Shown here piece by piece: positions 5,706 through 52,312 of a DNA stretch of 64,000 nucleotides. This DNA comes from Methanobacteriota archaeon (GTDB taxonomy: Archaea; Thermoplasmatota; Thermoplasmata; Methanomassiliicoccales; UBA472). The notes under the pieces are model-generated. The model was not told where the DNA came from and ran no database searches. It saw nothing but the letters and a program-made list of their open reading frames with translations. The position numbers and the translations under genes are program-made. Position 1 is the stretch's first letter. Every line of letters starts with the position of its first letter. The stretch lies in contig JAJFUT010000109.1 in NCBI GenBank assembly GCA_021372315.1, positions 3,759 to 67,758 of the forward strand, in the 5' to 3' direction.

Positions 5706-5936
5706 GTGATCGAACAGATAGCGACTTTGATGACCGCAGCTTTCGCATTCGTGGCAGCATTGTCATGGAACCAGGCGATACTGGCGCTGATACGGGAATT
5801 TATCAGCCAGGAGGAAGACTGGGTATCCCTCATGGTAGTGGCAATAGTCATCACGATAATTGCGGTCATAGCAAGCTTGATGATCGCACGCGCCGCCTCA
5901 AAGGCCAAGGGAGCCGACGCAAAGGCGGGCAAGTAA
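5706..5936 (+). CDS. small two-TM membrane protein
   Basis: 76 aa with a GTG start preceded by GAAGGGGGGA. Two hydrophobic helices and a Lys/Ala-rich tail. Function unknown. Confidence 0.55.
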   Translation: MIEQIATLMTAAFAFVAALSWNQAILALIREFISQEEDWVSLMVVAIVITIIAVIASLMIARAASKAKGADAKAGK

Positions 5937-5946
5937 GCGCTATCCC

Positions 5947-5993
5947 GGCCGCTGTTGGCGGCCACACAATCCTTTTATCGTCCCTATTTTTTA
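5947..5993 (+). terminator. hairpin (GGCCGC-tgttg-GCGGCC) followed by T-tracts
   Basis: A perfect 6-bp stem at 5947-5963 lies directly after the stop at 5936. It is followed by CTTTTAT and ATTTTTTATT. Oligo-T is the usual archaeal termination signal. Confidence 0.3.
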
Positions 5994-6011
5994 TTCCCCT
6001 TGGAATTGCAC

Positions 6012-6323
6012 ATGCCGATACTAGCATACATCCTGATGTTCATCTCGATCGCACTGATAGCCTACGGTTTCACGGTCAGAGGTGGAGGGATCAAAGCCGT
6101 CCCCGGATACAAGCCTGACCCAAACGTGGAGGTCAGGGAGGAAGATCTCGTCAAGTTCGCGAGCAAGAACCTCGTGCTGATAGGCATCGTCGATCTCATC
6201 ATCGCCGCGGCTCTCATCCTGATCGGCGACGACGTTCTGGTATTCGCCGCCACCATACTGTTCACGCTGTTCATCTTCGTGGCGATCAGATATGCGTCGA
6301 AGGTGCTGGTCATCCCGAAATGA
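6012..6323 (+). CDS. hypothetical membrane protein
   Basis: An ATG at 6012 inside the 5955..6323 ORF gives MPILAYILMFISIALIAYGF... with three predicted TM helices. No recognisable domain. Confidence 0.5.
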   Translation: MPILAYILMFISIALIAYGFTVRGGGIKAVPGYKPDPNVEVREEDLVKFASKNLVLIGIVDLIIAAALILIGDDVLVFAATILFTLFIFVAIRYASKVLVIPK

Positions 6324-6393: not shown

Positions 6394-7410
6394 TTGAAGA
6401 TCAAGGTAGGGATCAACGGATTCGGCACTATCGGCAAGAGGGCCGCATGGGCGGTCTCAAAGCAGGACGACATGGAACTGGTCGGGGTAACGAAGACCAG
6501 GCCGAGCTTCGAGGCGCTGATGGCCATCGATCAAGGCTTCCCTCTTTACGCGGCATGCCAGGACGACGTCGCCGGTTTCGAGAAGGCCGGGATGAAGACC
6601 GCCGGCACGCTCGATGACCTGCTGACGAAGGTCGACATCATCGTCGACACGACGCCTGGAGGCGTGGCCGAGGGATACAAGTCCAAGTACGAGGCCGCGG
6701 GCGTCAAGGGAATATTCCAGGGTGGGGAGGACCACAGCCTCACTGGCATATCCTTCAACGCCATGGCCAACTATCACGAATCATGGGGGGCGAAGTTCTC
6801 CCGAGTGGTGTCCTGCAACACGACCGGACTTTGCCGCACCCTCTACCCGATCGACAAGGAGATAGGCGTCTCAAGGGTCATCGCGTCCCTCATCAGGAGA
6901 GGCGCCGACCCCGGTGACAGGAAGGGCTCGATGCTCAACGCCATCGAACCGTCGCTGAAGCTCCCGACACATCATGGACCTGACGTGCAGACGATCATGC
7001 CTTGGATGAACATCCAGACGATGGCCGTCGTCACTCCGACGACGCTCATGCACGTCCACTGCATCGCCGTAGACCTCAAGAGGAAGACGACCGAGGACGA
7101 GGTCGTCAGCATATGGCAGCTCACCCCGCGTGTCCGTCTGGTCCGCGGAAAGGACGGCATCAAGTCCACCGGCCAGGTCATGGAGCTCTCGAGGGACATG
7201 GGCAACCCGCGCGGCGACATGATGGAGATTGTTGTCTGGAAGGACGGAATCAAGGTCGTCGACGACCATCTGTACTACTATCAGGCGATACACCAGGAGA
7301 GCGATGTCGTGCCAGAGATAGTCGACTGCATAAGGTCGATGACAAAGCTCGAGCAGGACCCGCTCAGGTCGATCGCCAAAACGAATAAGGCGCTGGGCCT
7401 GTCAAAATAA
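6394..7410 (+). CDS. gap: archaeal type II glyceraldehyde-3-phosphate dehydrogenase
   Basis: TTG at 6394 is preceded by GGAGGGAG. (M)KIKVGINGFGTIGKR, SCNTTGL catalytic Cys, and a 338-aa length typical of archaeal GAPDH. The longer 6292 start would add non-homologous residues. Confidence 0.9.
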   Translation: MKIKVGINGFGTIGKRAAWAVSKQDDMELVGVTKTRPSFEALMAIDQGFPLYAACQDDVAGFEKAGMKTAGTLDDLLTKVDIIVDTTPGGVAEGYKSKYEAAGVKGIFQGGEDHSLTGISFNAMANYHESWGAKFSRVVSCNTTGLCRTLYPIDKEIGVSRVIASLIRRGADPGDRKGSMLNAIEPSLKLPTHHGPDVQTIMPWMNIQTMAVVTPTTLMHVHCIAVDLKRKTTEDEVVSIWQLTPRVRLVRGKDGIKSTGQVMELSRDMGNPRGDMMEIVVWKDGIKVVDDHLYYYQAIHQESDVVPEIVDCIRSMTKLEQDPLRSIAKTNKALGLSK

Positions 7411-36801: not shown

Positions 36802-37257
36802 ATGCGCCGCGTGGACAGGGAGATAACGGACAGGAACGTCATCGACGAGCTGATAGCAAAAGCGAGCATCTGCAGGATCGGCCTGGTCGACGGCGACGAG
36901 GCGTACATCGTCCCCATGAACTTCGGGTATGGGGACGGCTGTCTCTGGTTCCATTCTGCGCTGGAGGGAAGGAAGGTCGATCTGGTCAAAAAGAACGGAA
37001 AGGCGTCCTTCGAGATGGACATCGACGACGGTCTGGTCATGGACAAGGTCGCCGACAAGTGCACGAATCGCTATTCATGCGTGATGGGCACGGGACCTAT
37101 CTCCATCGCCGAGGGCGAGGAGAAGATGAAGGGGATCGAGCTCCTGATGGAGCACTACTCCTCCGAGCCGTTCAAGATGACCGACAAGTGCGCCCCCATG
37201 GTCCACATCTTCAAACTGGAGATAAGGTCGCTGAGCTGCAAGAGGAACGGGCGATGA
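36802..37257 (+). CDS. pyridoxamine 5'-phosphate oxidase-family (NimA-like) FMN-binding protein
   Basis: 151 aa. MRRVDREITD...ICRIGLVDGDEAYIVPMNFGY. Confidence 0.8.
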   Translation: MRRVDREITDRNVIDELIAKASICRIGLVDGDEAYIVPMNFGYGDGCLWFHSALEGRKVDLVKKNGKASFEMDIDDGLVMDKVADKCTNRYSCVMGTGPISIAEGEEKMKGIELLMEHYSSEPFKMTDKCAPMVHIFKLEIRSLSCKRNGR

Positions 37258-37962
37258 TCAGTCCATGCTTACGACTGCGCCGCCCTCTGTCATGACCATG
37301 TAGGTGCGTAGCGGTATTTGCTTACCAGACAGTTCGATCGCCTTGCTCACGAGCTTCTTCGACACGCGACAGCAGGGCACTTCCATGTGCAGCAGCGAGA
37401 CGTCCTTGATGTCATTTGCCTTGAACATCGCCGCCAGCTTCTGAACGAACTCCCCGTTGTCGTCCAGCTTGGGGCAGCCGATCAGGACGATCCTGTCCTT
37501 GATGAAATCCCTTTGGATGTTCCCGCAGGCGAACGCCGTGCAATCTGCGGCGATGAGCAGGCTGGCGCCATTGAAGTACGGCGCCTTGACCGGCACGAGC
37601 CTTATCTGTATCGGCCAGGTGCTCAGCTGCGAGGCGTTCTCGCCCGAGGGGGCCGCGCTCATTGCCTTGAACTTCCTCGGGCCGGAGCCCGGACACGCAT
37701 GCATAGGTATGTCGTCGCAGCTCTTCTTCGACAGATGCTCCTTTGTGGCCATCTCATCGAACTCGTCCGCTTCCCTCTCAATGATCTTCAACGCATTGGT
37801 CGGGCATTCCCCGATGCATGCCCCGAGACCATCGCAGAACCTGTCGCTCACGACCCGAGCTTTGCCATCAACGAGCGCTATGGCCCCTTCGGCGCAGGCG
37901 GTCACGCAGTTGCCGCATCCCGTGCAAAGTGCTTCGTCGATCTGGATGATCTTCCTCTTCAT
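37258..37962 (-). CDS. 4Fe-4S dicluster-domain protein with a Cys-containing C-terminal domain
   Basis: CTGCGNCVTACAEGA and CDGLGACIGECPTNA, then a ~150-aa domain (LIGCPKLDD, EVPCC). Start chosen at MKRKIIQIDE; the ORF extends to 37983. Confidence 0.75.
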   Translation of the reverse strand: MKRKIIQIDEALCTGCGNCVTACAEGAIALVDGKARVVSDRFCDGLGACIGECPTNALKIIEREADEFDEMATKEHLSKKSCDDIPMHACPGSGPRKFKAMSAAPSGENASQLSTWPIQIRLVPVKAPYFNGASLLIAADCTAFACGNIQRDFIKDRIVLIGCPKLDDNGEFVQKLAAMFKANDIKDVSLLHMEVPCCRVSKKLVSKAIELSGKQIPLRTYMVMTEGGAVVSMD

Positions 37963-38053
37963 GATCATTCGACGAATCTGCATATATAAAATCCTTCTTT
38001 GACTAGATAGGTAAATATTCCGATAATTGCATCAATGACGGCCAGGTGCGCTT

Positions 38054-39154
38054 TTGACCGAAAGATTGCGGATCGTAGAGGTGAACGCCTTCCACTATCC
38101 TTACCGTGGTGGGATAGAGAATCGTGTCCACAACATCGGCAAACGATTGGCCGAAAAGCACGATGTTATCGTGCTGACGAGCCAGTTGCCGGATACGGAC
38201 CCCCGAGAGACGATCGATGGTTACGAAGTTTTGAGGCTCCCGTCGAAGTTCATAGGAAGATACAATCCTCCTTACGTGTCCACGTCTGGTCTGATGGAGG
38301 CTTTGAAAGCGTTGGATCCAGACATCGTTGACTTCCATTACCGCTGGGCGCCGACCTACAACAAGCTGGCGCGCGGATACCCCGGAAAGAAGGTGTTCAC
38401 GTTTCACAACACTTTCGGCGAGGGGGTCGGCATCACGAGACTGCCTTCCATGGTCAACGATCAGATGTGGAAACGCCATCTGAAACGGTTCGGCAAGGTC
38501 GTCTGCATCAGCGAGTTCATCAGGACAGACCTCATAAGGAGGGGACTCGACCCGTTAAAGCTGGTGACCGTGCCCAACGGCGTCGATATGCCTGACGTGC
38601 GCGCAGATATCGAGGAGAAGGACTTCATACTCTTCGTCGGCAGGCTGGTCGCCACGAAAGGTCTCCCATATCTGATAAGGGCCATGGCCCGAATCGACTC
38701 GAAACTGGTGATCTGCGGAGCTGGTCCCGAAGAGAGGCACCTCAGGAAACTGGCTTCAAAACTGGGCCTCGATCGCAAGGTCGAGTTCGCTGGAAAGGTC
38801 TCGGAGGAAAGGAAGTCCGAACTTCTGGCGTCCTGCAAGATATTCGTCATGCCTTCGCTTTACGAATCGTATGGGATAGCTGTCGCAGAGGCCATGTCGT
38901 TCGGCAGGCCGATCGTGGCCACGAGCGTCGGAGGTCTACCGGAGGTCGTCAAGGATGCTGGCCTGATCTCAGCCGCCAAGGACCCGTCCGACCTTGCATG
39001 CAAGATCAATGATCTTCTTCTCGATGATGGTAGGAGAGCGATCATGGGAGCGAGAGCGAGAACATATTCATTGAAGTACGATTGGGATTCCATCGCATCA
39101 AAAATGGAATCCCTGTACGTCCAATCCATTTACAACGGCCATGGTGACCATTAG
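38054..39154 (+). CDS. GT4-family glycosyltransferase
   Basis: 366 aa. FVGRLVATKGL, PSLYESYGIAVAEAMSFGRPIVATSVGGLPEVV (EX7E region). Confidence 0.85.
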   Translation: MTERLRIVEVNAFHYPYRGGIENRVHNIGKRLAEKHDVIVLTSQLPDTDPRETIDGYEVLRLPSKFIGRYNPPYVSTSGLMEALKALDPDIVDFHYRWAPTYNKLARGYPGKKVFTFHNTFGEGVGITRLPSMVNDQMWKRHLKRFGKVVCISEFIRTDLIRRGLDPLKLVTVPNGVDMPDVRADIEEKDFILFVGRLVATKGLPYLIRAMARIDSKLVICGAGPEERHLRKLASKLGLDRKVEFAGKVSEERKSELLASCKIFVMPSLYESYGIAVAEAMSFGRPIVATSVGGLPEVVKDAGLISAAKDPSDLACKINDLLLDDGRRAIMGARARTYSLKYDWDSIASKMESLYVQSIYNGHGDH

Positions 39155-39555
39155 GGTCCGTTCAGGTTCAAATATCGTCCGAATCCGAAGCTTTTTTGCG
39201 AATATGTCATTGTTTTCCCGTCCATGATCGGAAATGACGGTGCATCGGCCGAGAGAACGATCTCGATCCCTAAGACCGGTAGATGGTGTTCAATCAGATC
39301 GAAATCACGTGCTTCAAGTTGATGAACGAACATGCTGGACCATCTACGATATGGTTCTCGTAAACGCTAATGCATCGGTATCGATAGGCCGATTGTCGGC
39401 CCGATCGCCCATCCACCTCAGGCCACCATATGACGGTTTCCTCGGCGTCGCCGGCCGGTCCATCGGTGATGATACCATGCGGTCTCAAAACAGGATATCT
39501 AGCTACGGATAGCGGGAGGGGGCTATTTTATTCATATTAATACCCGTTTGAAGCA

Positions 39556-40149
39556 ATGCTGACTTATAATAGGCCGGATTTACACAATTGGGGTATTGCC
39601 ATCTCGAAATACAGTATCCAGAACGTGGTTGCATCCGCAAATTTGGGCACAGAGCTCGATCTAAACGTCCTCGCACTCAATCTGAATGGAGCCGAGTATG
39701 AGCCTCAGGCATTTCCTGGCCTCATCTTCAGGCTGAAGGAGCCTAAGACCGCGACCTTGCTTTTCCATAGTGGGAAGCTCGTCTGCACCGGCGCCAAGAC
39801 ATTGGAGCAGGTGAAGCTCGCGATCGAAACGGTCGTGAAGAGCGTCAAGGAGGCCGGGGTAACGATCACTGGCACACCTACCTACGAGGTCCAGAACATC
39901 GTCGCTTCGTCCGATCTCGGACAGCCGATCGATCTAACGTCCGTCGTCATATCATTGGGCCTGGAGAGGGTAGAGTACGAGCCGGAAGTGTTCCCTGGTC
40001 TCGTTTACCGCATGAGCGACCCGAAGGTCGTGTTCCTGCTCTTCGGTTCCGGAAGGCTCGTGTGCACCGGCGCACGCAAACCTCACGATGTCGAGGTGTC
40101 CGTCGACAAGCTGACGGAAGAACTGCGCGCGGCCGACCTGTTGCACTGA
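39556..40149 (+). CDS. tbp: TATA-box binding protein, paralogue 1
   Basis: 197 aa with two TBP repeats. IQNVVASANLG...EYEPQAFPGLIFRL...LLFHSGKLVCTGAK and VQNIVASSDLG...EYEPEVFPGLVYRM...LLFGSGRLVCTGAR. Confidence 0.9.
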   Translation: MLTYNRPDLHNWGIAISKYSIQNVVASANLGTELDLNVLALNLNGAEYEPQAFPGLIFRLKEPKTATLLFHSGKLVCTGAKTLEQVKLAIETVVKSVKEAGVTITGTPTYEVQNIVASSDLGQPIDLTSVVISLGLERVEYEPEVFPGLVYRMSDPKVVFLLFGSGRLVCTGARKPHDVEVSVDKLTEELRAADLLH

Positions 40150-40297
40150 ACGTGCACTGGCCGGTATCTCTCCGAAGACGCAGCCGCGATCCTTTCCGAA
40201 TTGGACGACCCGATCCGACCCGGGGCTTGATGATGAAGGTCACAACGTTCCTTGATCGGGCGACCGTCCCTTATTAAATCATTCGACGTCGGCTTCA

Positions 40298-40305
40298 TTT
40301 AAATA
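40298..40305 (+). promoter_or_regulatory. TATA box (TTTAAATA) upstream of TBP paralogue 2
   Basis: Matches the archaeal TTTAWATA consensus. 20 nt separate it from ATG 40326, consistent with a leaderless or near-leaderless transcript. The ATACCA and ATTTTAC blocks downstream of it recur upstream of TBP paralogue 3. Confidence 0.4.
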
Positions 40306-40380
40306 TACCATAAATTTTACTCTCCATGGGGCATCGTTATATCGAACTACAATATCCAGAACATCGTAACGTCCGCGAAC

Positions 40381-40887
40381 TTGGGCACAGAGCTCGATCT
40401 CAACTCCCTCGCCCTCAATCTGAAGGATGCTGAGTATGAGCCTCAGTCGTTCCCTGGCCTGATCCTTCGTTCGAAGGAATCCAAGACGACGGCGCTATTG
40501 TTCAGAAGCGGGAAGATCGTTTGCACCGGCGCCAAGAACCTCGAGCAGGTCAAGCGCTCGGTCGAATCCGTCGTGAAGAGCGTCAGGGAGGCAGGCATCC
40601 CCATCGCCGGAGTCCCAACATACGAGGTCCAGAACATAGTTGCCTCGTCGGACCTCGGGCAGCTCATCGATCTAACTTCGATCGTCCTGTCCCTCGGACT
40701 CGACAAGGTGGAGTACGAGCCTGAGGTTTTCCCAGGTCTCGTGTATCGCATGAAGGAACCGAAGGTCGTGTTCCTGCTCTTCGGGTCAGGGAGACTGGTC
40801 TGCGTCGGGGCTCGGGTGCCCGAGGACGTCGGGACGGCCATCGACAAACTGACGGAAGAGCTGCGCATGGCCGATCTGTTGCACTGA
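40381..40887 (+). CDS. tbp: TATA-box binding protein, paralogue 2 (canonical start displaced; homology extends upstream to 40327)
   Basis: The ORF-track ORF starts at TTG 40381. The same frame is open and TBP-homologous from 40327 (WGIVISNYNIQNIVTSAN). The only ATG (40326-40328) is one nt out of frame and sits next to a GGGG run. Confidence 0.7.
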   Translation: MGTELDLNSLALNLKDAEYEPQSFPGLILRSKESKTTALLFRSGKIVCTGAKNLEQVKRSVESVVKSVREAGIPIAGVPTYEVQNIVASSDLGQLIDLTSIVLSLGLDKVEYEPEVFPGLVYRMKEPKVVFLLFGSGRLVCVGARVPEDVGTAIDKLTEELRMADLLH

Positions 40888-41058
40888 GAGCCACATTTCT
40901 AAGAACAAAAAGGAATCCGGTTCGATCCAGGTATCGATCTGGAACGATCGCTCGTTTTCAGGAGTCGCACCTGATGTATTGGTCGTCCCGAGATCCTTTT
41001 CATCCTTCGGCCTGCGATCTACGAGCAACCTCTATAGCAAATACCAAGCTCATTTTAC

Positions 41059-41625
41059 ATGGTCTGTGGGATCCTCATATCAAAATATTGCGTTCAGAAC
41101 ATGGTAGCATCTGCAAGTCTGGGCAGAGAGCTTGACCTCACCACTCTTGCGCTCAATATGAACGGGGCCCAGTATGAACCGCAGACCTTCCCCGGATTGG
41201 TCTTCCGGTTAAAGGAGCCTAAGACAGCGACTCTGCTCTTCCACAGTGGAAAGCTCGTTTGTACTGGTGCCAAGACCCTTGCACAGGTCGAACTCGCCAT
41301 TGAAACAGTTGTCAAGAGCGTCACGGAAGCTGGCATTCCGATCACTGGCTCCCCCACCTTCCAGGTTCAGAACATCGTCGCTTCGGCGGATCTTGGGTGC
41401 CATTTAGATCTTACGTCGTTGGTCATATCATTGGGTCTGGACAAGGTGGAGTATGAACCAGAGGTGTTCCCAGGTCTGGTCTATCGTATGATCGAACCTA
41501 AGGTGGTATTCCTCATTTTCGGGTCTGGTAGATTGGTATGCACAGGGGCACGGACATCACAGGATGTCGGGATCGCAGTGGATAAGCTGACGGAAGAACT
41601 CCGCGCGGCCGATCTTCTGCAATGA
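41059..41625 (+). CDS. tbp: TATA-box binding protein, paralogue 3
   Basis: 188 aa, MVCGILISKYCVQNMVASASLG.... Both TBP repeats are intact. Confidence 0.9.
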   Translation: MVCGILISKYCVQNMVASASLGRELDLTTLALNMNGAQYEPQTFPGLVFRLKEPKTATLLFHSGKLVCTGAKTLAQVELAIETVVKSVTEAGIPITGSPTFQVQNIVASADLGCHLDLTSLVISLGLDKVEYEPEVFPGLVYRMIEPKVVFLIFGSGRLVCTGARTSQDVGIAVDKLTEELRAADLLQ

Positions 41626-41648
41626 ACCAATCTCCGATCTTAAGAATG

Positions 41649-41654
41649 AAAAAA
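41649..41654 (-). terminator. oligo-T tract downstream of tRNA-Pro
   Basis: The minus strand reads ...CATCATATCACTATTTTTTCATT beginning right after the tRNA 3' end. Oligo-T is the usual archaeal terminator. Confidence 0.35.
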
Positions 41655-41667
41655 TAGTGATATGATG

Positions 41668-41743
41668 TGGTGGGTCTGTCCGGATTTGAACCGGAGTCAC
41701 CAGCACCCCAAGCTGGAAGGATACCAAGCTACCCCACAGACCC
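41668..41743 (-). tRNA. tRNA-Pro (anticodon GGG), CCA encoded
   Basis: Hand-folded. Acceptor GGGTCTG/CAGACCC. D arm with G18G19. Anticodon stem CCAGC/GCTGG with loop TTGGGGT (GGG, G37). T arm TCCGG-TTCAAAT-CCGGA. Discriminator A + CCA. Confidence 0.9.
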
Positions 41744-41769: not shown

Positions 41770-41961
41770 TTAGCCTAGAGGGATCAGTTCCTCGAGCAGG
41801 TCCGAATGCGAAATGATCATGCGCCTGCAGCAGTAACGCGTCAGGCCCAGGTCGTCCAGCACTTCCTTCGGGTCCTCTCCCATCTGCACCCTCTTGACGA
41901 AGGTCTGATACGAGCTTCCGATGACCTTGCCGCACGTGAAACATCTCACCGGTATTATCAT
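41770..41961 (-). CDS. rpoN: DNA-directed RNA polymerase subunit N (Rpo10)
   Basis: 63 aa. [15 protein letters not shown]...[11 protein letters not shown]. Confidence 0.93.
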
Positions 41962-41967
41962 TCCTGC

Positions 41968-42372
41968 TCACCTGTAGGACTTCTGCCTCTTCTTCCTTGC
42001 ACCACGGCCCAGGGGCTTCTTCGGCAGCTTTCTCCTGATGTCGGAGATCAACAGTGACCTGTCGAACTGCTTGACAGCCTTTTCCAGTTCCTCATCGCCG
42101 TAATACTCTACGATCGACTTAGCGATTGCGGTCCTGGTCGCCTCGGCCTGACCCATGACACCGCCGCCAGCCACGCTGACGTCGATATCGACCTTCTTCG
42201 CCCTCTCACCTAGAAGGGCAAGGGGCTCCATGATCTTGAGCCTGGCGAGCTCTGGCTGCCATGCCTCGATCGGGACCGAGTTGATGCGTAGCTTGCCGGT
42301 TCCTTCCTGACAGACTGCGCGAGCTACTGCCGTCTTCCTCTTTCCGCTCGTGTTGATGACCTTTGCCGCCAT
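41968..42372 (-). CDS. rps9: 30S ribosomal protein uS9
   Basis: 134 aa. TSGKRKTAVARA...GGGVMGQAEA...RKKRQKSYR. Confidence 0.95.
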   Translation of the reverse strand: MAAKVINTSGKRKTAVARAVCQEGTGKLRINSVPIEAWQPELARLKIMEPLALLGERAKKVDIDVSVAGGGVMGQAEATRTAIAKSIVEYYGDEELEKAVKQFDRSLLISDIRRKLPKKPLGRGARKKRQKSYR

Positions 42373-42376
42373 GTAC

Positions 42377-42802
42377 TCACCTCACCTTGGAGCCTAGGAA
42401 CTCAGCGACCTCGCCGACGAAGATGTACTTCTCGGTGTTGAGCTTCGTTGCGCTAGCGATCTTCTCCATCTTCGCGTCGGCGAACTCCACAGGGACCCCG
42501 ACATAGATCTTGAGCTTCTTGTAAGCCGCCTTGCCTATTGGGTGGTCCCAAGGAAGCATTCCCCTGACCATGCGCTTTAGAATCAGATCAGCGCGCCTCG
42601 GGTAGAACGGCCCAGAGTGGGCGTAGCCCCTGTCGCGCTTTGACTTGTATTTCTCATATATTGCATAACGGTCACCTGTGATGACCGCCTTCTCGGCGTT
42701 GACGATGACTATCGTCTCGCCCTTGAGCAGCTGGTGAGCCACAGTGGTGGCGAGCCTTCCAGCGATGTGCTTCTCCGCATCGATTACGATCATCTGATTC
42801 AC
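42377..42802 (-). CDS. rpl13: 50S ribosomal protein uL13
   Basis: 141 aa. VIDAEKHIAGRLAT...AVITG...RMVRGMLP. Confidence 0.95.
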   Translation of the reverse strand: MNQMIVIDAEKHIAGRLATTVAHQLLKGETIVIVNAEKAVITGDRYAIYEKYKSKRDRGYAHSGPFYPRRADLILKRMVRGMLPWDHPIGKAAYKKLKIYVGVPVEFADAKMEKIASATKLNTEKYIFVGEVAEFLGSKVR

Positions 42803-43158
42803 CTCATGATCTTGATGCCGGTCCCGTTGGGCTTCATCTTCACAAGTTCCATTATGCTGATGCCCTTACCGCCGGCCTCCGCGATCTTCTTCTTCGCGGA
42901 TTCGGAGAAATCATACGCAGCTACGGTTACCTTCTTGTTGATGCTGCCAGCTCCCAACACCTTACCGGCTACGACGACGAAGTCGCCATCGGTGGTGTAT
43001 CGCTCTAACTTGCTCAGGTTGACTTCCGCCCTATTCGCATTGGACTTCTCAAGTCTCTGAGCAATGTCTCGCCAGATGTCCGCCCCGTTCTCCCTCGAGG
43101 ACTTCTTGAGGTCCGCGATGAGGAGCACCAGGTTCGGATCAGTCTTCTGTAGTCTCAT
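42799..43158 (-). CDS. rpl18e: 50S ribosomal protein eL18 (L18e)
   Basis: ATG at 43158 (MRLQKTDPNLVLLIADLKK...) is preceded by GGGAGAG and gives 119 aa, the usual L18e length. An upstream GTG at 43191 is the alternative start. Confidence 0.88.
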   Translation of the reverse strand: MRLQKTDPNLVLLIADLKKSSRENGADIWRDIAQRLEKSNANRAEVNLSKLERYTTDGDFVVVAGKVLGAGSINKKVTVAAYDFSESAKKKIAEAGGKGISIMELVKMKPNGTGIKIMR

Positions 43159-43263
43159 TTGTCTGACTCTCCCGACATTGGTAAGCGGCACTAATAGAGA
43201 GGGGGTTAAAATACCTTTCCAAGCGCCGCTAGAGTCAATGACACCAAGCCAGCAACCCCGTTC

Positions 43264-46200
43264 TCATTTATCAGCTTGTCGCTTGATCGCGACCTTGACA
43301 GCCTCTTCTATCCGGTCCAACGTCCTCTCCCTGTCAAGCGCCCAATCCCGGGACCACACACGGATGGTGTTCCAGCCGAGGTTCTTGAGAACGCCCTCGC
43401 GGACGATCTCCCTGTCCCGTGCGTTCCGACCGGCGGTGTACGACGTTCCGTCGCAGAGCACTCCGATGAGATACCTGCCCTTCTGGGCCGGGTCCATGAC
43501 CGCCACGTCGACCCTTATCGAGGACGAACCCACGTTCCTGGCGACCTGGTGCCCCCTCGCGGTGAGCGCCGACGCTATGGAACCTTCGAGCATAGACTTC
43601 GACAGAGCGATCTCCTGCGGCGTCATCGCCACCCTCCCGCCCTTGGACTCGGCATGGTCGAGGTAGTCCCTCAGAAGGACGACCCCTAGAGGTCCGTTCT
43701 GGCCTACCTGTATATCCCTGGACATGATCGAAGAGACGACCTTCACGGACCTTCTGGCCCTGGTGATCGCCACGTTCAGCCTCCGCGCGCCTCCTTCCTG
43801 GTTCAGCGGCCCGAAGTTGAGCGTCATCGTCCCGTTCCCGTCCTTGCCATACCCGACGGAGAAGATCATGACGTCCCTCTCATCGCCCTGCACGTTCTCC
43901 AGGTTCTTCACGAAGAACGGCTCCGAGCCTTCGTCGTCGAAGAGGTTCGCGAGCTCGGGCCGGTCCCGGCTCATGGCCTTCACCTTGTACTCAAGAACGT
44001 CCAGGACCGCGTCCTGTTGCGCCACGCTGAACGCCACGACGCCCAACGACATCTCGGGATAGGCAAGGTATTGATCGATCACGGTGTCAGCGACGATCGC
44101 CGCCTCGATCCTGTTATCTCTCCTTCCGCCCCTGTCGTACACTCCGTCCTTGACATGGATGAGCTCTATCCCCTCGCCCGGTCTCGACGGTTCGGCCGAA
44201 GGCGTCGTGATGAGCTTGCCGCCGTAGAGGTGGCGGTTGGAGAATGAGATGAGCGATTCCTGCCTCGACCTGTAATGCCATAAGAGCATCCTCTGCTTAA
44301 GCCCTATCGTCCCGCACTCGTCCAGAATGCTCTCGAGGTCCTCTAGCTCGTCCTCGTCGTCGGTCTCCGAGATGCGGTCGAAGAAACGCGTCGGGGGCAG
44401 CTGCCTGTTATCGCCCACGACCACGAGCTGTTTTCCTCTCAGTATGCAGCAGATCGCGTCCTCCGGGACGATCTGGGACGCCTCGTCGAAGATGACGACG
44501 TCGAACTGCACCTTCTCTGGCGGAGGGAGGAACTGGCTTACGGATATGGGGCTCATCATGAAGCAGGGCTTGGCGACGCCGAGCACCGTCGGGCTCCTAG
44601 CTATCATCTCCCTGACCGCAGGCCTCTTCTTGCTGCCCTTGAGCCCGATGAGATAGCCCTCCTCCTGCCTCCACCTCTCGTCGGCGTTCATCCTGTTGTT
44701 CTTGATCTTGTCGAAAAGGAGCTTCCTGAGCCTGGCCTTGGATATTTCCCTGGAGTCCTTGTCGAGCTGCTTGTACTTGGATATCCTGTCCATGTGCTCG
44801 GACGAGTTGAACCGGCCGAGCGCCTGCTCCTTCGCGTGCAGCTCCTGCAGCCACAGCTGGAAGAACCTCTTCCTGAACATCGGCTTCAGGTCCGATAGCG
44901 CGGGCTGACGCTTCAGCACCTCCTCGTAGAGCGAACCGAGGCCTTCGGCCCTGAGCATCGCCTCGGTCTCCCTGAACTCGACCCACTCAGCGAGCCTGGC
45001 CTTGGCATCGACGTGGCCCTTGGCGAACGTCCTCAATCTGATCATCTCGGACGACCCGTCGAACGCCCTGAGGTTGTCAACAAAGAGGTTCCGTGCCGAC
45101 CCGAGCGCGAGGTCCAGGTCCTTCATCGCCCTGAGCGCCGTCGGTCCGTTACCGACGACGTCCTCCCTGAGCTCAGTTCCCTCGGCGACTACCTTCACCC
45201 ATGAGCCATCGTATCCGGGCATGTCCATGAACGATTTCGTCCAGCGCAGGGCAGATATGACCGGTCCCACGTCCTTTCCCATGTCGCCGTTATATCGTCC
45301 GAACCATTCAACGCCGTTCTTCTCGACATCTGCCAGCAATGTTTTGGCGCGCTGGTATTTTCTTAGGGCGAGCACGTCCCTGCGCGCGTCCTTGAACCCG
45401 ACCTTGCCGGTCGTGGACAGCATGTTGATCGCCTTCATGTCGATCCTGTAGCTAGTTCTGAAGATCCTGAGAAAGCTGGTATATTGCTTCTCGAACCTGT
45501 CCGCATAGGCGGTGCCGTCGAAGTCGAGGAACTCCTTCTTGTATCTCGTCAGGATGTATGCCTCGTTCGTGTTCGATTCGTCCGTGGCCGTCAGGAGCTT
45601 CATCGCTATGTCTAGGAGCCTCTCGGCCTCCCCCTTGGCGAACCAGTTCCTTGGCGGGAGCGGCGACCCTCCTGCGACGGAGAGCAGCGCCGAGAACTTA
45701 CGCATGGAATCGAGGCTCTTCGGGACCTCCATTCCCGCCTTCGGGCAGAACGCCGAGGATATCGCCAGAAGCTTCTCGATCTCCTTGAACACATCCTCCA
45801 GCCTGACGATGAGCTCCGCCTGTTCGGCCGGTCCGAGGTTCTTCAGGTCGCAGTCCCTCCATGGGTGGATCTCCCTCTCGACGAGAACGGACCTCGATGA
45901 GATGAGCCTCTGTATCGCATGCTCGGCGCTGTCCATCCTCTCCCTCGTGAAAGTCAGCGTGCCAGGGAGGTCGAACACGATCTGAGGATAATCATGCAGC
46001 GAGGCCAGCTCGCCATAGGCATGATGGGCGCTCATCTCCATAGGGCCCTGGGGGGAATGGAGCATGGCGACGTAGGCGTTGAGCTCCTCCCTGACGGTCC
46101 GCAGATGATTGAGCTTGAACTCGTCCTGCCCCTCGGTCCTGTGATCGACCATCTCGAGCGGACGAAGCATGCTCTCCAGAACGTCCTGCTTCGTCGGGTT

Positions 46201-47316
46201 GCTGGAGTGCATCTCGAGGCAGAATTCGCCCAGGCCGCAGCTGTCGAGCCTTCTCTTCACGACCTCCAGGGCGGCCATCTTCTCCGCGACGAACAGGACG
46301 GACTTGCCCTTAGCTAAGGACTCCGCGATGATGTTCGCGATCGTCTGGCTCTTGCCAGTGCCCGGAGGCCCGATGAGCACGAGGTTCTCCCCGCGCTTGA
46401 CGGCCTCGACAGCCTCCTGCTGGCTCGAGTCCGCCTCCAATATCTGATAGGTAGTGATGGGATCGAGCTCCCCCCCGGCAGGAGCGGTCCCTTCCGGCGG
46501 GACCCGCGAGAGATCGCCGGCGAGCGCCCTGAGGAGAGGGTGCTGCCTGATGGCGTCGGTGTTGCTTCTCAGGTCCTTATAGATGACGACCTTGGAGAAC
46601 ATGAACAGTCCGAGCAGAGGCTTCCCGATCTGAACGACCCAGCCGTTCCTCTTCATCAAGATGGCGGCAAGCGAGTTCAGGTAATCCAGGATGCTGAACC
46701 CCTCCAGGTCATCGGGCAGGGGCGGCAGGTCGGTGTTCATCTCCTTCCTGACCTTGAGCGCGAGCGCAGGGTTGAGGACGATCTCCTCCCCTATCACCTC
46801 AATAGTGTAGGACGATATCATCCCTTTCCTCGAGAGCTTGACCGGGGCTAACAGCAGCGGGGCCATGTGGACCTCGTCCTTCTCGTCCTTCCAGTTCAGC
46901 GTTCCGAACGTGACGAAGAGGGCGTCGACGCCCCTTTCCCTCCTGATGAGATTGGACTTTGAACGGAGGTTCCTGAGCACCTTCTCGGTGTTGGGGTTGA
47001 GCGTCGACGGCACCTCTCTCCCGTTCAGCACCGTAACGTTGTTGGAGAGGTCGCATTCCCTTCCGCCTGAAGGGTCCTCCCTGAACTCGTCCCTGAACTT
47101 CTCGCAATGGAGGGAAAGTGTCTTCCGATCGAGAACGAGACCGTTGAAGATGTCCTTCATTTCGGAACCGTTGATGATTATCGTCGCGGACTTCGTCATC
47201 CTGTAGTTCAGGAGCTTGTTGCTCATGCTGAGGTCGATCAGCTTCGACCCCCAGTCCGCGATCTTCTCGTCCAAGGTCATCTTCGTCTGCGTCACTTTAT
47301 TCCCCCTGCTGGTCAT
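43264..47316 (-). CDS. DUF4011-type N-terminal domain + Upf1-like SF1 helicase + C-terminal Vsr/DUF559-like (REase-fold) domain
   Basis: 1350 aa. N-terminus LIDLSMSNKLLNYR and GVDALFVTFGTLNW...APLLLAPVKL. Walker A GPPGTGKSQT, Walker B VIFDEASQI, GDNRQLPPT, WHYRSRQESLISFSN, GDERDVMIFSVGYG, RRLNVAITRARR. Tail IRVDVAVMD...YLIGVLCDGTSY...ARDREIVREGVLKNLGWNTIRVWSRDW. Confidence 0.85.
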   Translation of the reverse strand: MTSRGNKVTQTKMTLDEKIADWGSKLIDLSMSNKLLNYRMTKSATIIINGSEMKDIFNGLVLDRKTLSLHCEKFRDEFREDPSGGRECDLSNNVTVLNGREVPSTLNPNTEKVLRNLRSKSNLIRRERGVDALFVTFGTLNWKDEKDEVHMAPLLLAPVKLSRKGMISSYTIEVIGEEIVLNPALALKVRKEMNTDLPPLPDDLEGFSILDYLNSLAAILMKRNGWVVQIGKPLLGLFMFSKVVIYKDLRSNTDAIRQHPLLRALAGDLSRVPPEGTAPAGGELDPITTYQILEADSSQQEAVEAVKRGENLVLIGPPGTGKSQTIANIIAESLAKGKSVLFVAEKMAALEVVKRRLDSCGLGEFCLEMHSSNPTKQDVLESMLRPLEMVDHRTEGQDEFKLNHLRTVREELNAYVAMLHSPQGPMEMSAHHAYGELASLHDYPQIVFDLPGTLTFTRERMDSAEHAIQRLISSRSVLVEREIHPWRDCDLKNLGPAEQAELIVRLEDVFKEIEKLLAISSAFCPKAGMEVPKSLDSMRKFSALLSVAGGSPLPPRNWFAKGEAERLLDIAMKLLTATDESNTNEAYILTRYKKEFLDFDGTAYADRFEKQYTSFLRIFRTSYRIDMKAINMLSTTGKVGFKDARRDVLALRKYQRAKTLLADVEKNGVEWFGRYNGDMGKDVGPVISALRWTKSFMDMPGYDGSWVKVVAEGTELREDVVGNGPTALRAMKDLDLALGSARNLFVDNLRAFDGSSEMIRLRTFAKGHVDAKARLAEWVEFRETEAMLRAEGLGSLYEEVLKRQPALSDLKPMFRKRFFQLWLQELHAKEQALGRFNSSEHMDRISKYKQLDKDSREISKARLRKLLFDKIKNNRMNADERWRQEEGYLIGLKGSKKRPAVREMIARSPTVLGVAKPCFMMSPISVSQFLPPPEKVQFDVVIFDEASQIVPEDAICCILRGKQLVVVGDNRQLPPTRFFDRISETDDEDELEDLESILDECGTIGLKQRMLLWHYRSRQESLISFSNRHLYGGKLITTPSAEPSRPGEGIELIHVKDGVYDRGGRRDNRIEAAIVADTVIDQYLAYPEMSLGVVAFSVAQQDAVLDVLEYKVKAMSRDRPELANLFDDEGSEPFFVKNLENVQGDERDVMIFSVGYGKDGNGTMTLNFGPLNQEGGARRLNVAITRARRSVKVVSSIMSRDIQVGQNGPLGVVLLRDYLDHAESKGGRVAMTPQEIALSKSMLEGSIASALTARGHQVARNVGSSSIRVDVAVMDPAQKGRYLIGVLCDGTSYTAGRNARDREIVREGVLKNLGWNTIRVWSRDWALDRERTLDRIEEAVKVAIKRQADK

Positions 47317-49182: not shown

Positions 49183-49195
49183 CTGTCAAATTAAA

Positions 49196-50007
49196 TCATC
49201 GGTCATCCAGCTCTTCAATGAACTTTTTGATCGTCACATAGCTCTCTGCTTGGTCCCTCTTTCTCTGTTCCTCATCATTTCCAGATAAGAACCTTCCAAC
49301 CCAAGAAGGGCCCTCGGCATCGATCGATCTGAATTTCTTCCTAATCTTTCACATGCCCAATTGCATGCTATGCTCATTTAGGAACGGTTTTACCTTCCGG
49401 CCTATTGCACCAGGATTCTCGAGACACTGCGAAACTACGGAGTAAATGTAATAATCATCTTTCTCCTTGTATCGTTCACTCAGCACTACTCCTTTCATTC
49501 CAATGCACCCCGTGATATCCAACACTTTTATTGTAGAGCTCGACACTCCATTACCTGGAAGAAACCATCGAAAATTCTTATCAAGATTATGTTGAAATGC
49601 AATATCGCATCCGTTTGCGGTCCTTGCAGGAGGTGTTCTTTGTATCACCCTATGTCTATGTTTCCCCGAATCAATTGACGGGCTTGTCAAAAATCTATAG
49701 AGATGGGATATACCACACCGTTTGATCTTGATACCACTTTCTTTTCGAAACTGAATGAGATCGTTTGTCCATCTTTCCCTCTACTCTCAGTATATCCTCG
49801 TTCCTGGACAAGATCGATAATTGTTGAATATTCATCGTCCCTCATCAGTTCTGGATTGACGGCTAGGTCAATATCGACGGATCCGACGTGGGTGATCCCT
49901 CCCCTGCCGAACTCCTCTATGAGGAAGAATGGTGCCCAACCCCCAACAAGCACCAGCGCTTCTCGATACGAACTCGGGGTCAATGACAATTCCAACAGGG
50001 CCGACAA
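49196..50007 (-). pseudogene. AbiEii/AbiGii-like nucleotidyltransferase toxin gene, broken by a frameshift and an in-frame stop
   Basis: ORF 49687..50007 carries LVLVGGWAPFF...HVGSVDIDLAV (NTase GG/GS...DxD) and ends ISIDF*. The +1 frame continues LTSPSIDSGKHRH...IKVLDITGCIGMKGVVLSERYKEKDDYYIY. The switch lies in an A5 run at 49689-49693. A TGA at 49346-49348 is followed by 49 more open in-frame codons, to 49199. Confidence 0.6.
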
Positions 50008-50060
50008 TGATGTCTCAGAAACACCAGTACCATAATCGGACGACGATCTTGGCTGCCCAA

Positions 50061-51101
50061 CTAAACTCCCAATATCTTCTCTCTGATGGCTTCAGCCTGC
50101 TCCCTTCCACGTTGAGGATAGTTGTTGAGGTCTAAGTAGAGCTGAATGTTGGACACTACTCTCACTCCATCTATCGATCGGGCGCTTCTCAGTATCCCAT
50201 CGTCCTTTGGTTCCATCAGATAGACATTGCCGCCAAATTCAACAGGCTCTAAACCCAGATTGTTTATTACAGCGGAAAAATCATTGCAGTACAAGTACAC
50301 ATCAACTGACCTCACAACTGGAAGGACCAACTGGGCAGCAGCTCCTAGGGTAAGAGCATAATCGTCCTCGATCTCCCTCAGCTTTGAAAATATTTGTTCA
50401 TAGCCTTTAAGAGGCGAATAATACCCGACGATCTTCTGATCATCATAGCTATATCTATCGGCCATCAGATCAAGTAAACCAGAAGGGTCTGAGATCCTTA
50501 TCGCGCCTCTCTTTTTATCAATGTACTTTTCAGCTTCGAGGCTATCCAGCACCTTATACACTTGAGCCAGGCTTACCGAGCAGTAGTTCGATAATTCCTG
50601 CATCGTCCATCTCTTCTCCGGATTCTCGAGCATGCTCCTGATGATCAAAGAACTCTTCAGAGAGAGCAGGTTCTTTTGTTTCCTCTCGATTTTATATTTG
50701 TTACTGCTACCCCACTGATTAATATATACATTATCATATTTTAAATAGATATTCCCTGACAGGTCAATGCACCCGATATTGGACCTTTCGCACAATCGTC
50801 TTCCTCGTTCGCTGATGAAAGGCGCAACCAGGACAGGATAATGGTCTGCCCTGGATCGATCGCCAATTCGACCCGCGAACTCAGCGATGGATCTAGGTTC
50901 CCCATTTGAGCGGAACTCGAGCAACAATTTCTTTTTCTGATTTCCGATCATGAAATTGGCGATTAGATAGGTCCTGCCATCCTTGCTCACATTATCTGGA
51001 TCTCTTTCCCATTTGATTATCCCTAAGTGGGACAGCAATGTTTCTACCTTTTTTTCATATTCCGTCTCTTTCATAATTTTCACTATATTACTAATATTCA
51101 C
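50061..51101 (-). CDS. AbiEi-like antitoxin/transcriptional regulator (central wHTH) with an extra N-terminal domain
   Basis: 346 aa. wHTH WTMQELSNYCSVSLAQVYKVLDSLEAEKYI. C-terminal part with VSNIQLYLDL, as in AbiEi-type proteins. It lies directly upstream of the NTase gene. The family assignment is from memory of the architecture, not a search. Confidence 0.5.
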   Translation of the reverse strand: MNISNIVKIMKETEYEKKVETLLSHLGIIKWERDPDNVSKDGRTYLIANFMIGNQKKKLLLEFRSNGEPRSIAEFAGRIGDRSRADHYPVLVAPFISERGRRLCERSNIGCIDLSGNIYLKYDNVYINQWGSSNKYKIERKQKNLLSLKSSLIIRSMLENPEKRWTMQELSNYCSVSLAQVYKVLDSLEAEKYIDKKRGAIRISDPSGLLDLMADRYSYDDQKIVGYYSPLKGYEQIFSKLREIEDDYALTLGAAAQLVLPVVRSVDVYLYCNDFSAVINNLGLEPVEFGGNVYLMEPKDDGILRSARSIDGVRVVSNIQLYLDLNNYPQRGREQAEAIREKILGV

Positions 51102-51167
51102 CGAGTGGTGAAAATAATATGGATGGTGAAAGTAAAAACTATTATCCCAACACTGTCTAGAAATAAT

Positions 51168-51812
51168 TCACTGTTCCGAGCGCTTCTTGCGCGCCATGAC
51201 GGTCTCCCCGTAATAGGGGTTCTGGTACTCGTCCCAATATATGGCGAAGGGCCTTTCTTCGACCGATCCTTCCTTCAATCTGAAGACGGCGATCTCGACG
51301 TTAACGGGGTCGATGACAAGGGCCGAATGGTATGGGCCGCTGAACATCTTCGTCTGAGTGTCAACATCGACCTGCGAAAGGAAGCAGCCATGCCCCGGGT
51401 GGGAATGGTACCATCCGACAATGACGTAGTTGAAGCAGGAGTCATCCATCGATTCGAAAAGCCTCTCGAATCCTTCACGATCGAACTTCACGCTGACAGA
51501 GGTGGCATCCAGGTCCGTCGTGGCCACGTCCCTTACCAGAGCGTAGGTCTTGCCGCCATCCTCATAGATGGAGCCGAGCAGAAAGCCCATGACCTCGACC
51601 ACATCGTCCTTCTTGCTAAGCGCATGATTGCGGATCCTCTCTTCGGCCGTCTTGGAGATGTAGAGCTCGAATGCGCCATCGCTCTCGGCGTAGGATCTCA
51701 TGGATTCTTCGGACAGCCACTTATGGGGCCTGCATCTTTCCTTTGGTGGTCTAGGCCTCTTCTCGACGGCGAGGTCCGTCGATGCAGTGATGATGGGCTT
51801 CCTCCTGATCAT
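51168..51812 (-). CDS. JAMM/MPN+ metalloprotease (Rpn11/JAB-like deubiquitylase candidate)
   Basis: An internal ATG at 51812 forms an ATGA overlap with the E2 stop. Glu in VVEVMGFLLG. JAMM motif HSHPGHGCFLSQVD (HxHx7SxxD). Confidence 0.85.
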   Translation of the reverse strand: MIRRKPIITASTDLAVEKRPRPPKERCRPHKWLSEESMRSYAESDGAFELYISKTAEERIRNHALSKKDDVVEVMGFLLGSIYEDGGKTYALVRDVATTDLDATSVSVKFDREGFERLFESMDDSCFNYVIVGWYHSHPGHGCFLSQVDVDTQTKMFSGPYHSALVIDPVNVEIAVFRLKEGSVEERPFAIYWDEYQNPYYGETVMARKKRSEQ

Positions 51813-52312
51813 CTTATCACCCTTGGCTGAACGGTCTTCGCCACAGGGGCCGCCTTCAGGCCCTCCTTGTTGAAATGTTCCGCGGCCATGGTGCAAGAAT
51901 CTGTGCCGAACGGACTGGAGCCGTTCGGAGATAGTAGGAGCGATTCGATACCTTTCAGGAAGCTGAGCAGCGAGGAGTTGAAGTTCCATTCGCTAAGAAG
52001 CCTCGTGCAGACGTGGCCTCCATCATCGGGCTGCATGATGTTGGGGTGGAAGATCGGCGTCTTCCAGATGACGAGAGGTTTTTCGAACGGATATTCTCGC
52101 CCGATGATCATCCTGAAGCTATGGGTGTATCGATAGGTCACCCTCCCGCCTTCGTATACCGGGCCAGGCAGATGATTGAACGTGATGTCGAGATCGAGCG
52201 GGAAGCTGTCCAGCCCTTCATCCGATATCTCGATGGTCGCCTTCGTGGCCAGCCGGCAGGCCGAGATCTCGTTCTTCAACCTTGACTTTAGGATCTCCTC
52301 CGGGAGCGTCAT
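51809..52312 (-). CDS. UBC-fold E2 ubiquitin-conjugating enzyme homologue
   Basis: 167 aa. YPFEKPLVIWKTPIFHPNIMQPDDGGHVCTRLLSEWNFNSSLLSFLKGIESLLLSPNGSSP. It has the HPN motif, a catalytic-position Cys, and the LLxxPNxxxP helix of eukaryotic E2s. Confidence 0.85.
   Translation of the reverse strand: MTLPEEILKSRLKNEISACRLATKATIEISDEGLDSFPLDLDITFNHLPGPVYEGGRVTYRYTHSFRMIIGREYPFEKPLVIWKTPIFHPNIMQPDDGGHVCTRLLSEWNFNSSLLSFLKGIESLLLSPNGSSPFGTDSCTMAAEHFNKEGLKAAPVAKTVQPRVIR

Follow-up and report, generated by a model that had tools for sequence, protein, structure and literature searches.

A tandem array of three divergent TATA-box binding protein genes in a Methanomassiliicoccales archaeon, probably composed of an ancient pair and a third copy found in one strain alone

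The 64,000-nt stretch of contig JAJFUT010000109.1 (GCA_021372315.1, Methanomassiliicoccales) analysed here, hereafter the window, carries three co-oriented, two-repeat genes for the TATA-box binding protein (TBP) at 39556–41625 on the forward strand. We designate them c1, c2 and c3 in 5′ to 3′ order; positions are those of the window, and the prefixes L and P denote loci of relatives and database proteins, respectively. Our analysis indicates that the locus is probably a composite array, in which c1 and c2 form an ancient tandem pair and c3 is a third gene of this genome alone, with all three copies functional. In this model, the c1/c2 pair would have descended vertically and stayed next to a variable region, with a GT4 glycosyltransferase gene on its other side. 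The more distant c3, which lies beside a proline transfer RNA gene (tRNA-Pro) where relatives have P-II genes or arrays of clustered regularly interspaced short palindromic repeats (CRISPR), would most likely have come by lateral transfer or rearrangement. The c1 protein may supply the bulk of TBP, and c2 would be a faster-evolving accessory paralogue with changes in repeat 1 and one base-contacting Thr replaced by Val, held at low abundance by a weak start codon. By analogy with Halobacterium and Methanosarcina, c2 and c3 may act as alternative TBPs with the transcription factor B (TFB) protein or proteins of the genome, serving promoter subsets or particular conditions.

The open reading frames (ORFs) of the three genes all lie in one reading frame. 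The a-type gene c1 (39556..40149, +) comprises 197 codons from an ATG, with its conserved core beginning at 39592 (GGT ATT). The core of c2, a b-type accessory TBP (40330..40887, +), belongs to a TBP frame that is open from 40303 and has its first in-frame canonical start at TTG 40381. The third gene, c3 (41059..41625, +), which is found in this strain alone, comprises 188 codons from ATG 41059 and has a low GC content at third codon positions (GC3). Pfam PF00352 matches each copy twice, with whole-protein E-values of 1.9e-57 (c1), 9.8e-57 (c2) and 1.3e-57 (c3) and scores of 189–192 bits against a cut-off of 22.9. The copies align without gaps over 185 codons that begin with the conserved 'GI' and run to the stop, with protein identities of 76–78% (c1–c2), 79–80% (c1–c3) and 72% (c2–c3), and nucleotide identities of 76%, 75% and 71%, respectively, over 555 gap-free core bases. 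The ORFs, the paired Pfam matches and the protein identities of 72–80% bear out the preliminary description of three tandem, co-oriented TBP paralogues, and the measured spacers (180 nt from the c1 stop to the c2 core, 171 nt from the c2 stop to the c3 ATG) agree with its 170–180 bp. Its length of ~190 codons holds for c1 and c3, but for c2 presumes a start codon that was not found. The strings it quoted were all located, namely the 20-nt run TTGGGCACAGAGCTCGATCT at 39643 (c1) and 40381 (c2), ATACCA at 40305 and 41041, and ATTTTAC at 40314 and 41052, and the peptide difference between LILRSKESKTTALLFRSGKI in c2 and LIFRLKEPKTATLLFHSGKL in c1 and c3 is correct. Among named relatives, the nearest to these TBPs and to ribosomal protein S9 come from Methanomassiliicoccales metagenome-assembled genomes (MAGs).

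The array is far beyond chance, yet it does not speak for recency. A recent triplication in which one TBP gene was copied head to tail along with its promoter, as first proposed for this locus, appears highly improbable. In its favor are the tandem, co-oriented arrangement in the same frame, the exact copy period of 738 and 738 nt (register points 39589 / 40327 / 41065), the short shared upstream blocks, and the identical run of 20–26 nt between c1 and c2. The pairwise alignment and dN/dS comparison that had been suggested as a check, run by the Nei–Gojobori method over 185 codons, speaks against it. For c1–c2, the nonsynonymous (dN) and synonymous (dS) divergences are 0.152 and 0.95 (dN/dS 0.16); for c1–c3, 0.119 and 1.86 (0.06); and for c2–c3, 0.178 and 2.0 (0.09). 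Synonymous sites between the copies are at or near saturation. Furthermore, the longest identical runs (26, 18 and 14 nt; P 0.13, 0.27 and 0.69) are no longer than those obtained with shuffled codon columns, so the 20-nt run of c1 and c2 reflects amino-acid conservation and not recency. Neither a low dS nor homologous spacers were found, and the copies are not each other's closest relatives. An assembly collapse or expansion, which had been raised as a concern, is implausible in copies that differ at 24–29% of bases.

Comparison with related genomes places the split of c1 and c2 well back in time. Orthologous genes occur in L082 (GCA_041652135.1, a Methanomassiliicoccales MAG), L083 (Joint Genome Institute, JGI, 3300022663) and L081 (JGI 3300037067). 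In L082 and L083, the gene order is Fer4–GT4–TBPa–TBPb followed by two P-II genes; in L081, an orthologue of c2 with 93% DNA and 98% protein identity is likewise followed by two P-II genes. The orthologues of c1, L082a and L083a, share 93% and 89% of amino acids with it. Neighbour-joining trees group the genes across genomes, with c1, L082a, L083a and P0006 as a-type and c2, L081b, L082b and L083b as b-type. Bootstrap values are 94–99% for the b-type clade and 82–92% for the a- and b-types together without c3. All b-type genes have in common the synapomorphies A54T, T55A, L63I, A77S and I78V (core numbering), and orthologous a-type genes of these lineages differ at a dS of 0.65–1.9. Because the first and second genes group across genomes, the a/b duplication predates the split of these lineages, and c1 and c2 separated before three or more other genomes diverged in which orthologous pairs persist at the same GT4-flanked position. 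By comparison, c3 falls outside the a+b clade, its place outside c1 and c2 having 87–92% bootstrap support; a sister relationship is recovered in 0–0.2% of bootstraps with c1 and in 0% with the a-type group. The duplications that had been called fairly recent are contradicted on each count, by the dS values of 0.95–2.0, by the separate orthologues of c1 and c2 elsewhere and by c3 not being sister to c1; the phylogeny that had been proposed to date them instead reveals an ancient pair and a third gene outside it.

Tandem TBP genes are rare among the sampled relatives: of 163 loci, only 4 had at least two TBP genes within the flanks retrieved. A distant Thermoplasmata MAG contig (L004, 1–1109) holds two tandem TBP genes that are ~50–54% identical to the window copies, which looks like an independent tandem duplication. 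Four database proteins of the TBP family (P0001, P0003, P0030 and P0123; 272–289 aa) apparently contain three TBP repeats, as judged by eye for P0001 and P0003; repeats 2 and 3 of P0003 have diverged, so that this is not a trivial assembly duplication.

The upstream sequences shared by the copies are explained by a motif of wider distribution. We aligned ~75 nt upstream of the 'GI' codons of c1, c2, c3, L082a, L083a, L001, L164, L166 and L168 and found a conserved order of GCRACCTC, an A/T-rich box (TAWAGCAAATAC or TTATAATAGG), N4–6, ATTTAC, 7–12 nt, a G-run and ATH. Across the clade, this promoter-like block precedes the 'GI' codons of TBP genes by ~25–35 nt. In c1 it occupies 39559..39594 (+), inside the annotated 5′ end of the gene, with TTATAATA at 39564–39571, ATTTAC at 39578–39583 and then the G-run. 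In c2 it spans 40298..40329 (+), with TTTAAATATACC at 40298–40309, which holds the in-frame TAA 40300–40302, ATTTTAC at 40314–40320 and an out-of-frame ATG at 40326–40328; this block is kept in L081, an independent JGI assembly. In c3 it spans 41025..41058 (+), with GCAACCTCTATAGCAAATACC at 41025–41045, matching the block of the distant lone TBP gene L001 at 18 of 21 bases (by eye), and ATTTTAC at 41052–41058. The block also stands upstream of the lone TBP genes in L166 and L168 as well as in L001, and ATACCA and ATTTTAC are therefore a conserved promoter-like motif of TBP genes and not a mark of co-duplication. The shared blocks noticed earlier in c2 and c3 are thus real, but as a clade-wide motif they do not signify that a promoter was duplicated along with the gene. 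Outside the block the spacers are unrelated, with a best local alignment of 12 nt and an identity of 34% in register versus 25±4% out of register; residual spacer homology beyond the block was looked for by local alignment and by this register test, and none was found. Rfam detected no non-coding RNA in the spacers, its sole match being tRNA-Pro. One weak terminator-like hairpin lies at 40935–40950, and a scan for sigma-70 promoters, which is not applicable to archaea, was uninformative. The ATG of c1 at 39556 is uncertain as a start, since it precedes the conserved block. As with c1 (ATG), the annotated TTG start of L082a lies upstream of the block and appears doubtful.

The 5′ part of c1 also shows an unusual likeness to L082a. 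Over the first ~150 core nucleotides and ~41 nt upstream (39552–39740 versus L082 2622–2810), the two are 97–98% identical, as compared with 72–89% over the remainder of the gene. The dS of the coding region ranges from 0.44 to 0.65, while the 41 nt are nearly identical. This could result from recombination between lineages or from constraint at the nucleotide level.

The start codon of c2 requires separate consideration. Its TBP frame is closed by TAA 40300 within the A/T-rich box, and no ATG, GTG or TTG follows in frame until TTG 40381. By alignment to 2z8u, this TTG comes after beta-strand S1; ATG 40326 is out of frame. These features could be taken to mean that c2 has lost its start codon and is a pseudogene, or that its only product begins at TTG 40381, lacks the N-terminus and is non-functional. 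The position of this TTG past S1, the replacement of a base-contacting Thr by Val, and the database itself fit such a reading: P0004 is identical to c1 and P0019 is c3 called from an internal Met15 (both from a MAG, 'Euryarchaeota archaeon'), and no protein identical to c2 is present there, though c1 and c3 of the same contig are. Automated annotation probably dropped c2 from the deposited proteins. When the exact c1 and c3 proteins were looked up in the contig index, neither gave a match. The substitution pattern, in contrast, makes loss of function unlikely. Relative to its orthologue L081b, c2 has 33 synonymous and 3 nonsynonymous differences (dN/dS 0.025). Codons upstream of TTG 40381 show synonymous-only change, with 6 synonymous and 0 nonsynonymous differences between c2 and L082b in IQNIVTSANL; the ratio of nonsynonymous to synonymous differences per site (pN/pS) is 0–0.16 for the S1 codons upstream of the TTG and 0.17–0.34 over the first 18 codons. 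By its substitution pattern, the stretch ahead of 40381 thus behaves like a coding sequence. In addition, TTG 40381 is not conserved, being CTG in L082b and CTC in L083b, and L082b is constrained despite the same lack of a canonical start. Apparently lone TBP genes share the anomaly as well. We consider it very likely that c2 is expressed and not a pseudogene.

In total, 5 of 14 TBP genes of the clade (c2, L081b, L082b, L001 and L168) have no in-frame ATG, GTG or TTG between the upstream stop and S1, at window 40300–40381, L082 3433–3511, L001 ~5920–6050 and L168 ~5930–6010, although purifying selection acts on this region; L001 and L168 each have a single TBP gene within their flanks. L082b is called from ATC, with no listed ORF of at least 100 aa initiated by ATG, GTG or TTG in the TBP frame, and L083b has TTG where other genes have TCG. 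A sequencing error or frameshift in GGGG 40328–40331, which would bring ATG 40326 into frame, was rejected, as L081 has the same GGGG with TTG replacing the ATG, and a programmed +1 frameshift from ATG 40326 was likewise rejected because this ATG is not conserved in L081b, L082b and L083b. The 'NTGG GGN' sequence encodes a conserved Trp-Gly that is also found in c1, L001 and L166. Translation of c2 probably starts at a near-cognate codon, for which ATC 40333 and ATA 40339 are candidates. A broader and more tentative possibility is that a non-canonical start is the rule for TBP genes in this clade, the candidates being a conserved AUH (Ile) or CUG codon by the G-run, just downstream of the block. 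Such a mode would cover c2 together with the apparently lone and presumably essential TBPs of relatives, and the ATG assigned to c1 may then be wrong. If this is true, weak near-cognate initiation would control how abundant this essential general transcription factor is. For annotation, the lesson is that the lack of a canonical start makes it easy to miss the b-type gene or to label it a pseudogene, despite the strong purifying selection on it.

Purifying selection acts on c1, c2 and c3, each of which is intact and has its own promoter-like block upstream. For comparison, dN/dS is 0.04–0.06 among a-type orthologues and 0.10–0.14 among b-type orthologues. The c1 copy has zero unique residues among 13 clade sequences, in contrast to 17 in c3, and is the slowest-evolving copy and probably the housekeeping TBP. 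Clustering of the differences in the first repeat, as reported previously, is seen for c2 (17 unique substitutions relative to c1 and c3 in repeat 1 versus 4 in repeat 2) but does not extend to c3 (9 versus 8) or c1 (2 versus 5).

The suggestion that the array is prone to recombination finds support only in a relative. L083a and L083b share an identical tract of 113 nt (core nt 379–491; L083 ~6092–6204 and ~6768–6880), a clear event of recent gene conversion, whereas the window copies show no detectable tract of this kind. Gene conversion among the latter was considered and rejected, with identical runs not longer than in shuffles. Conversion between c2 and c3 was rejected as well: the two share 14 exclusive sites, as compared with a background of 5–10 between c3 and unrelated orthologues, and several of the shared states are ancestral, being also present in L164.

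With respect to function, searches with c2 as query match solved archaeal TBPs over core residues 8–179 (2z8u, E 2.5e-44; 1mp9, 1e-41; 1pcz, 5.5e-40; 1ais, 1.1e-39), and the saddle-shaped alpha/beta fold is predicted for these proteins. The DNA-contact residues, which we take to be the intercalating F99/F116/F190/F207 together with N69/N159, T124/T215 and V71/V122/V161/V213 in yeast TBP numbering, are all kept in c1 and c3, and in c2 all but the equivalent of T215 are kept. This base-contacting residue in S5′ is Val in c2 (LVCVGAR), as in L081b and L082b. The Thr-to-Val change takes away a minor-groove hydrogen-bond donor and could alter the TATA preference of c2. Together with the divergence of repeat 1 in c2, it is the sole hint in the sequences that the paralogues may differ in expression or promoter class. 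The C-terminal stirrup is the TFB-contacting element in eukaryotic and archaeal structures. As it is near-invariant across c1, c2 and c3, TFB recruitment should be retained. Each of the three proteins is predicted to bind TATA boxes and to recruit TFB and RNA polymerase. A tblastn search with a single TFB probe detected no TFB homologue within the 64-kb window.

The third gene lies in a segment found in this genome alone (40888..41667, 780 bp), which comprises the spacer, c3 and a 42-nt tail, and homology to relatives ends at both of its edges. At the left edge, homology between the window and L081 stops exactly at the c2 stop codon (40887); the c2–c3 spacer matches no spacer between b-type and P-II genes, while those of L081 and L082 are visibly alike. 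At the right edge, L169, L172 and L174, which have this ribosomal operon in common with the window, cease to match it precisely at the 3′ end of tRNA-Pro (41668–41670). L169 is 97.8% identical to the window and comes from the same JGI sample as L081, and L172 is CP058896.1 (1.82 Mb). Beyond tRNA-Pro, both run into CRISPR arrays of differing types: that of L169 (2004–3553) has the 36-nt repeat GCTTCAATGGAGCCAGGTCGATTTAGACCTGGTTAG, and that of L172 (8797–11030), with the repeat CGGTTCACCCCCACGCATGTGGGGAATAC, is followed by Cas1/Cas2/Cse-type (type I-E-like) cas genes. In L082, cas genes come after the P-II genes. The window has no CRISPR array after tRNA-Pro and no P-II gene anywhere in its 64 kb.

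These findings raise the question whether the adjacency of c2, c3 and tRNA-Pro is a chimera of assembly or binning, the true locus being just c1–c2. In a closely related strain of JGI sample 3300037067, P-II genes do come after c2 (L081) and a CRISPR array comes after tRNA-Pro (L169). Assemblies frequently break at CRISPR regions, and a second assembly across the c3 junctions was not found. A chimera, however, needs two false joins around 780 bp, neither of them at a junction with repeats. Both flanks are native in composition and c3 alone deviates. Furthermore, with a divergence of 7% from the window in c2, L081 is a different strain and not the same genome. We regard a chimera as very unlikely.

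We favor a lateral acquisition or rearrangement of c3 because of its phylogenetic position and composition, and rate the chance of this at about even, above that of ancient vertical descent. The GC3 of c3 is 0.585, as compared with 0.72 in c1, 0.78 in c2, 0.68–0.85 in the genes flanking it on either side and a mean of 0.755 over 59 window ORFs. A search of 5.8 billion proteins returned no c3 orthologue above 80%, the closest matches being c1 and its orthologues at 77–80%. No viral relative of c3 was found in IMG/VR, nor was any integrase, att repeat, tRNA-derived direct repeat or mobile-element gene found as a signature of its integration; the c3 start and the 5′ end of tRNA-Pro do show an inverted match of 18 nt (10 nt exact), which is at chance level for a 3.2-kb region. 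A conserved native context for c3 was sought and rejected, as the closest lone TBPs (L164–L168 and L001–L003) have unrelated neighbourhoods.

The alternative that c3 is an old, vertically inherited third paralogue, which was lost from related genomes or lies elsewhere in them, deserves more weight than a chimera but remains on the doubtful side. The exact 738-nt register with c1 and c2 agrees with it, as do best database matches to c1 and its orthologues, the presence of the clade-typical promoter block and the monophyly of a-type, b-type and c3 genes in 36–45% of bootstraps. Moreover, the MAGs of relatives are not complete, and L082b is a demonstrated omission from the database. By comparison, c3 is absent from this place in four related lineages (L081, L082, L083 and L169), which share the arrangement of b-type and P-II genes and, in L081 and L082, a conserved spacer between them. 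The atypical GC3 of c3 also argues against old descent, and the period from a- to b-type gene in orthologous pairs varies (825 nt in L082, 676 nt in L083), so that an ancient register should not survive.

Several points weigh against an ancient pair joined by an independently acquired third gene. Values of dS above 1 are saturated and imprecise, and the neighbour-joining trees were built on 168–185 sites. The c2 gene has no canonical start codon, its full-length translation being deduced from sequence conservation. The GC3 of c3 is just ~1.6 standard deviations under the window mean, and its junctions rest on one MAG contig, with no independent assembly spanning either. The exact 738-nt register, in turn, is unexpected if c3 came independently. 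Since the spacers are unrelated and c3 is placed outside the a- and b-types in the tree, we treat the 738/738-nt register as a coincidence, at ~1 in 300 after the fact; it is still the best argument for an old triplet.

The genes around the array are those of a conserved chromosomal neighbourhood. Upstream, genes for Pyridox_ox_2 (+), a 4Fe-4S protein (−) and the GT4 glycosyltransferase (+), assigned by Pfam, occupy 36802..39154, and the same genes precede the TBP pair in L082 and L083. Downstream, tRNA-Pro(GGG) (41668..41743, −; ARAGORN, Rfam) is convergent with c3, recurs in L169, L172 and L174, and forms the right boundary of the variable region. It is followed by the rpoN-rps9-rpl13-rpl18e operon (41770..43191, −; Pfam), syntenic with L169–L175, and by a gene for a 1350-aa DUF4011 helicase (43264–47316, −) with AAA_11/AAA_12 and a C-terminal MTES_1575 restriction-endonuclease-like domain, which is kept beside the ribosomal operon in relatives. 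Farther downstream, a ~2-kb insertion of low GC content (49183–51198, ~0.44–0.48) is absent from the syntenic L172 and L174 and contains an ORF (50061–51101, −) with HTH_Crp_2 and AbiEi_2 (type IV toxin-antitoxin antitoxin-like) domains. Adjoining genes for a JAB/MPN protease-like and a UQ_con (E2-like) protein at 51168–52312 (−) are kept in L172 and L174 and resemble a ubiquitin-like modification pair of archaea.

In archaea, alternative general transcription factors correspond to alternative sigma factors, and work on them has so far dealt almost exclusively with haloarchaea and Methanosarcina. The locus described here, with divergent paralogues in one genome (72–80% identical), each kept by selection, extends the multi-TBP systems already known in other archaea to a Methanomassiliicoccales-type lineage. 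With a conserved housekeeping copy, an old accessory copy and a probably imported copy, it offers a natural series that could serve to test how promoter specificity arises in TBP paralogues.

Our comparison with the nearest relatives reveals that the window shares with L082, L083 and L081 the c1/c2 orthologues, the GT4-flanked position and the b-type synapomorphies, as well as the start-codon anomaly of the b-type gene (L081b, L082b). The obvious differences are the three genes here versus two in those lineages, where the b-type gene is followed by two P-II genes, the period of 738 nt versus 825 or 676 nt in L082 and L083, and the absence here of the 113-nt conversion tract of L083. A mobile precedent for a laterally acquired c3 near a tRNA gene is provided by viruses and plasmids of haloarchaea, as 88 plasmid records and 3 haloviruses carry TBP genes. 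The TBPs of HRTV-9 and HJTV-2 are, however, merely 34–35% identical to c3, and no mobile-element gene was found beside it.

The multi-TBP archaea Halobacterium and Methanosarcina, already named in the preliminary description, are the right comparison (PMC2121645, PMC5112694). In Halobacterium, tbpD and tfbA co-regulate >10% of genes, and some TBPs are dispensable and tied to particular regulons (PMC2121645). Methanosarcina has a primary, constitutive tbp1, and the expression of tbp2 and tbp3 is condition-dependent (PMC5112694). Like Halobacterium salinarum NRC-1 (tbpA–F, seven TFBs), the present genome holds several divergent, intact TBP paralogues, some of them on mobile or variable DNA. By contrast, the Halobacterium genes are dispersed over the chromosome and megaplasmids among insertion sequence elements, and the pNRC200 TBP gene that we inspected is solitary, whereas the genes here stand head to tail on the chromosome. 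As for Methanosarcina TBP1, TBP2 and TBP3, the number of three is the same, and the slow c1 versus the faster c2 and c3 parallels the primary versus accessory division. To our knowledge, the Methanosarcina TBP genes are not adjacent to one another; the locus described here would unite an ancient tandem pair with a third gene found in this strain alone.

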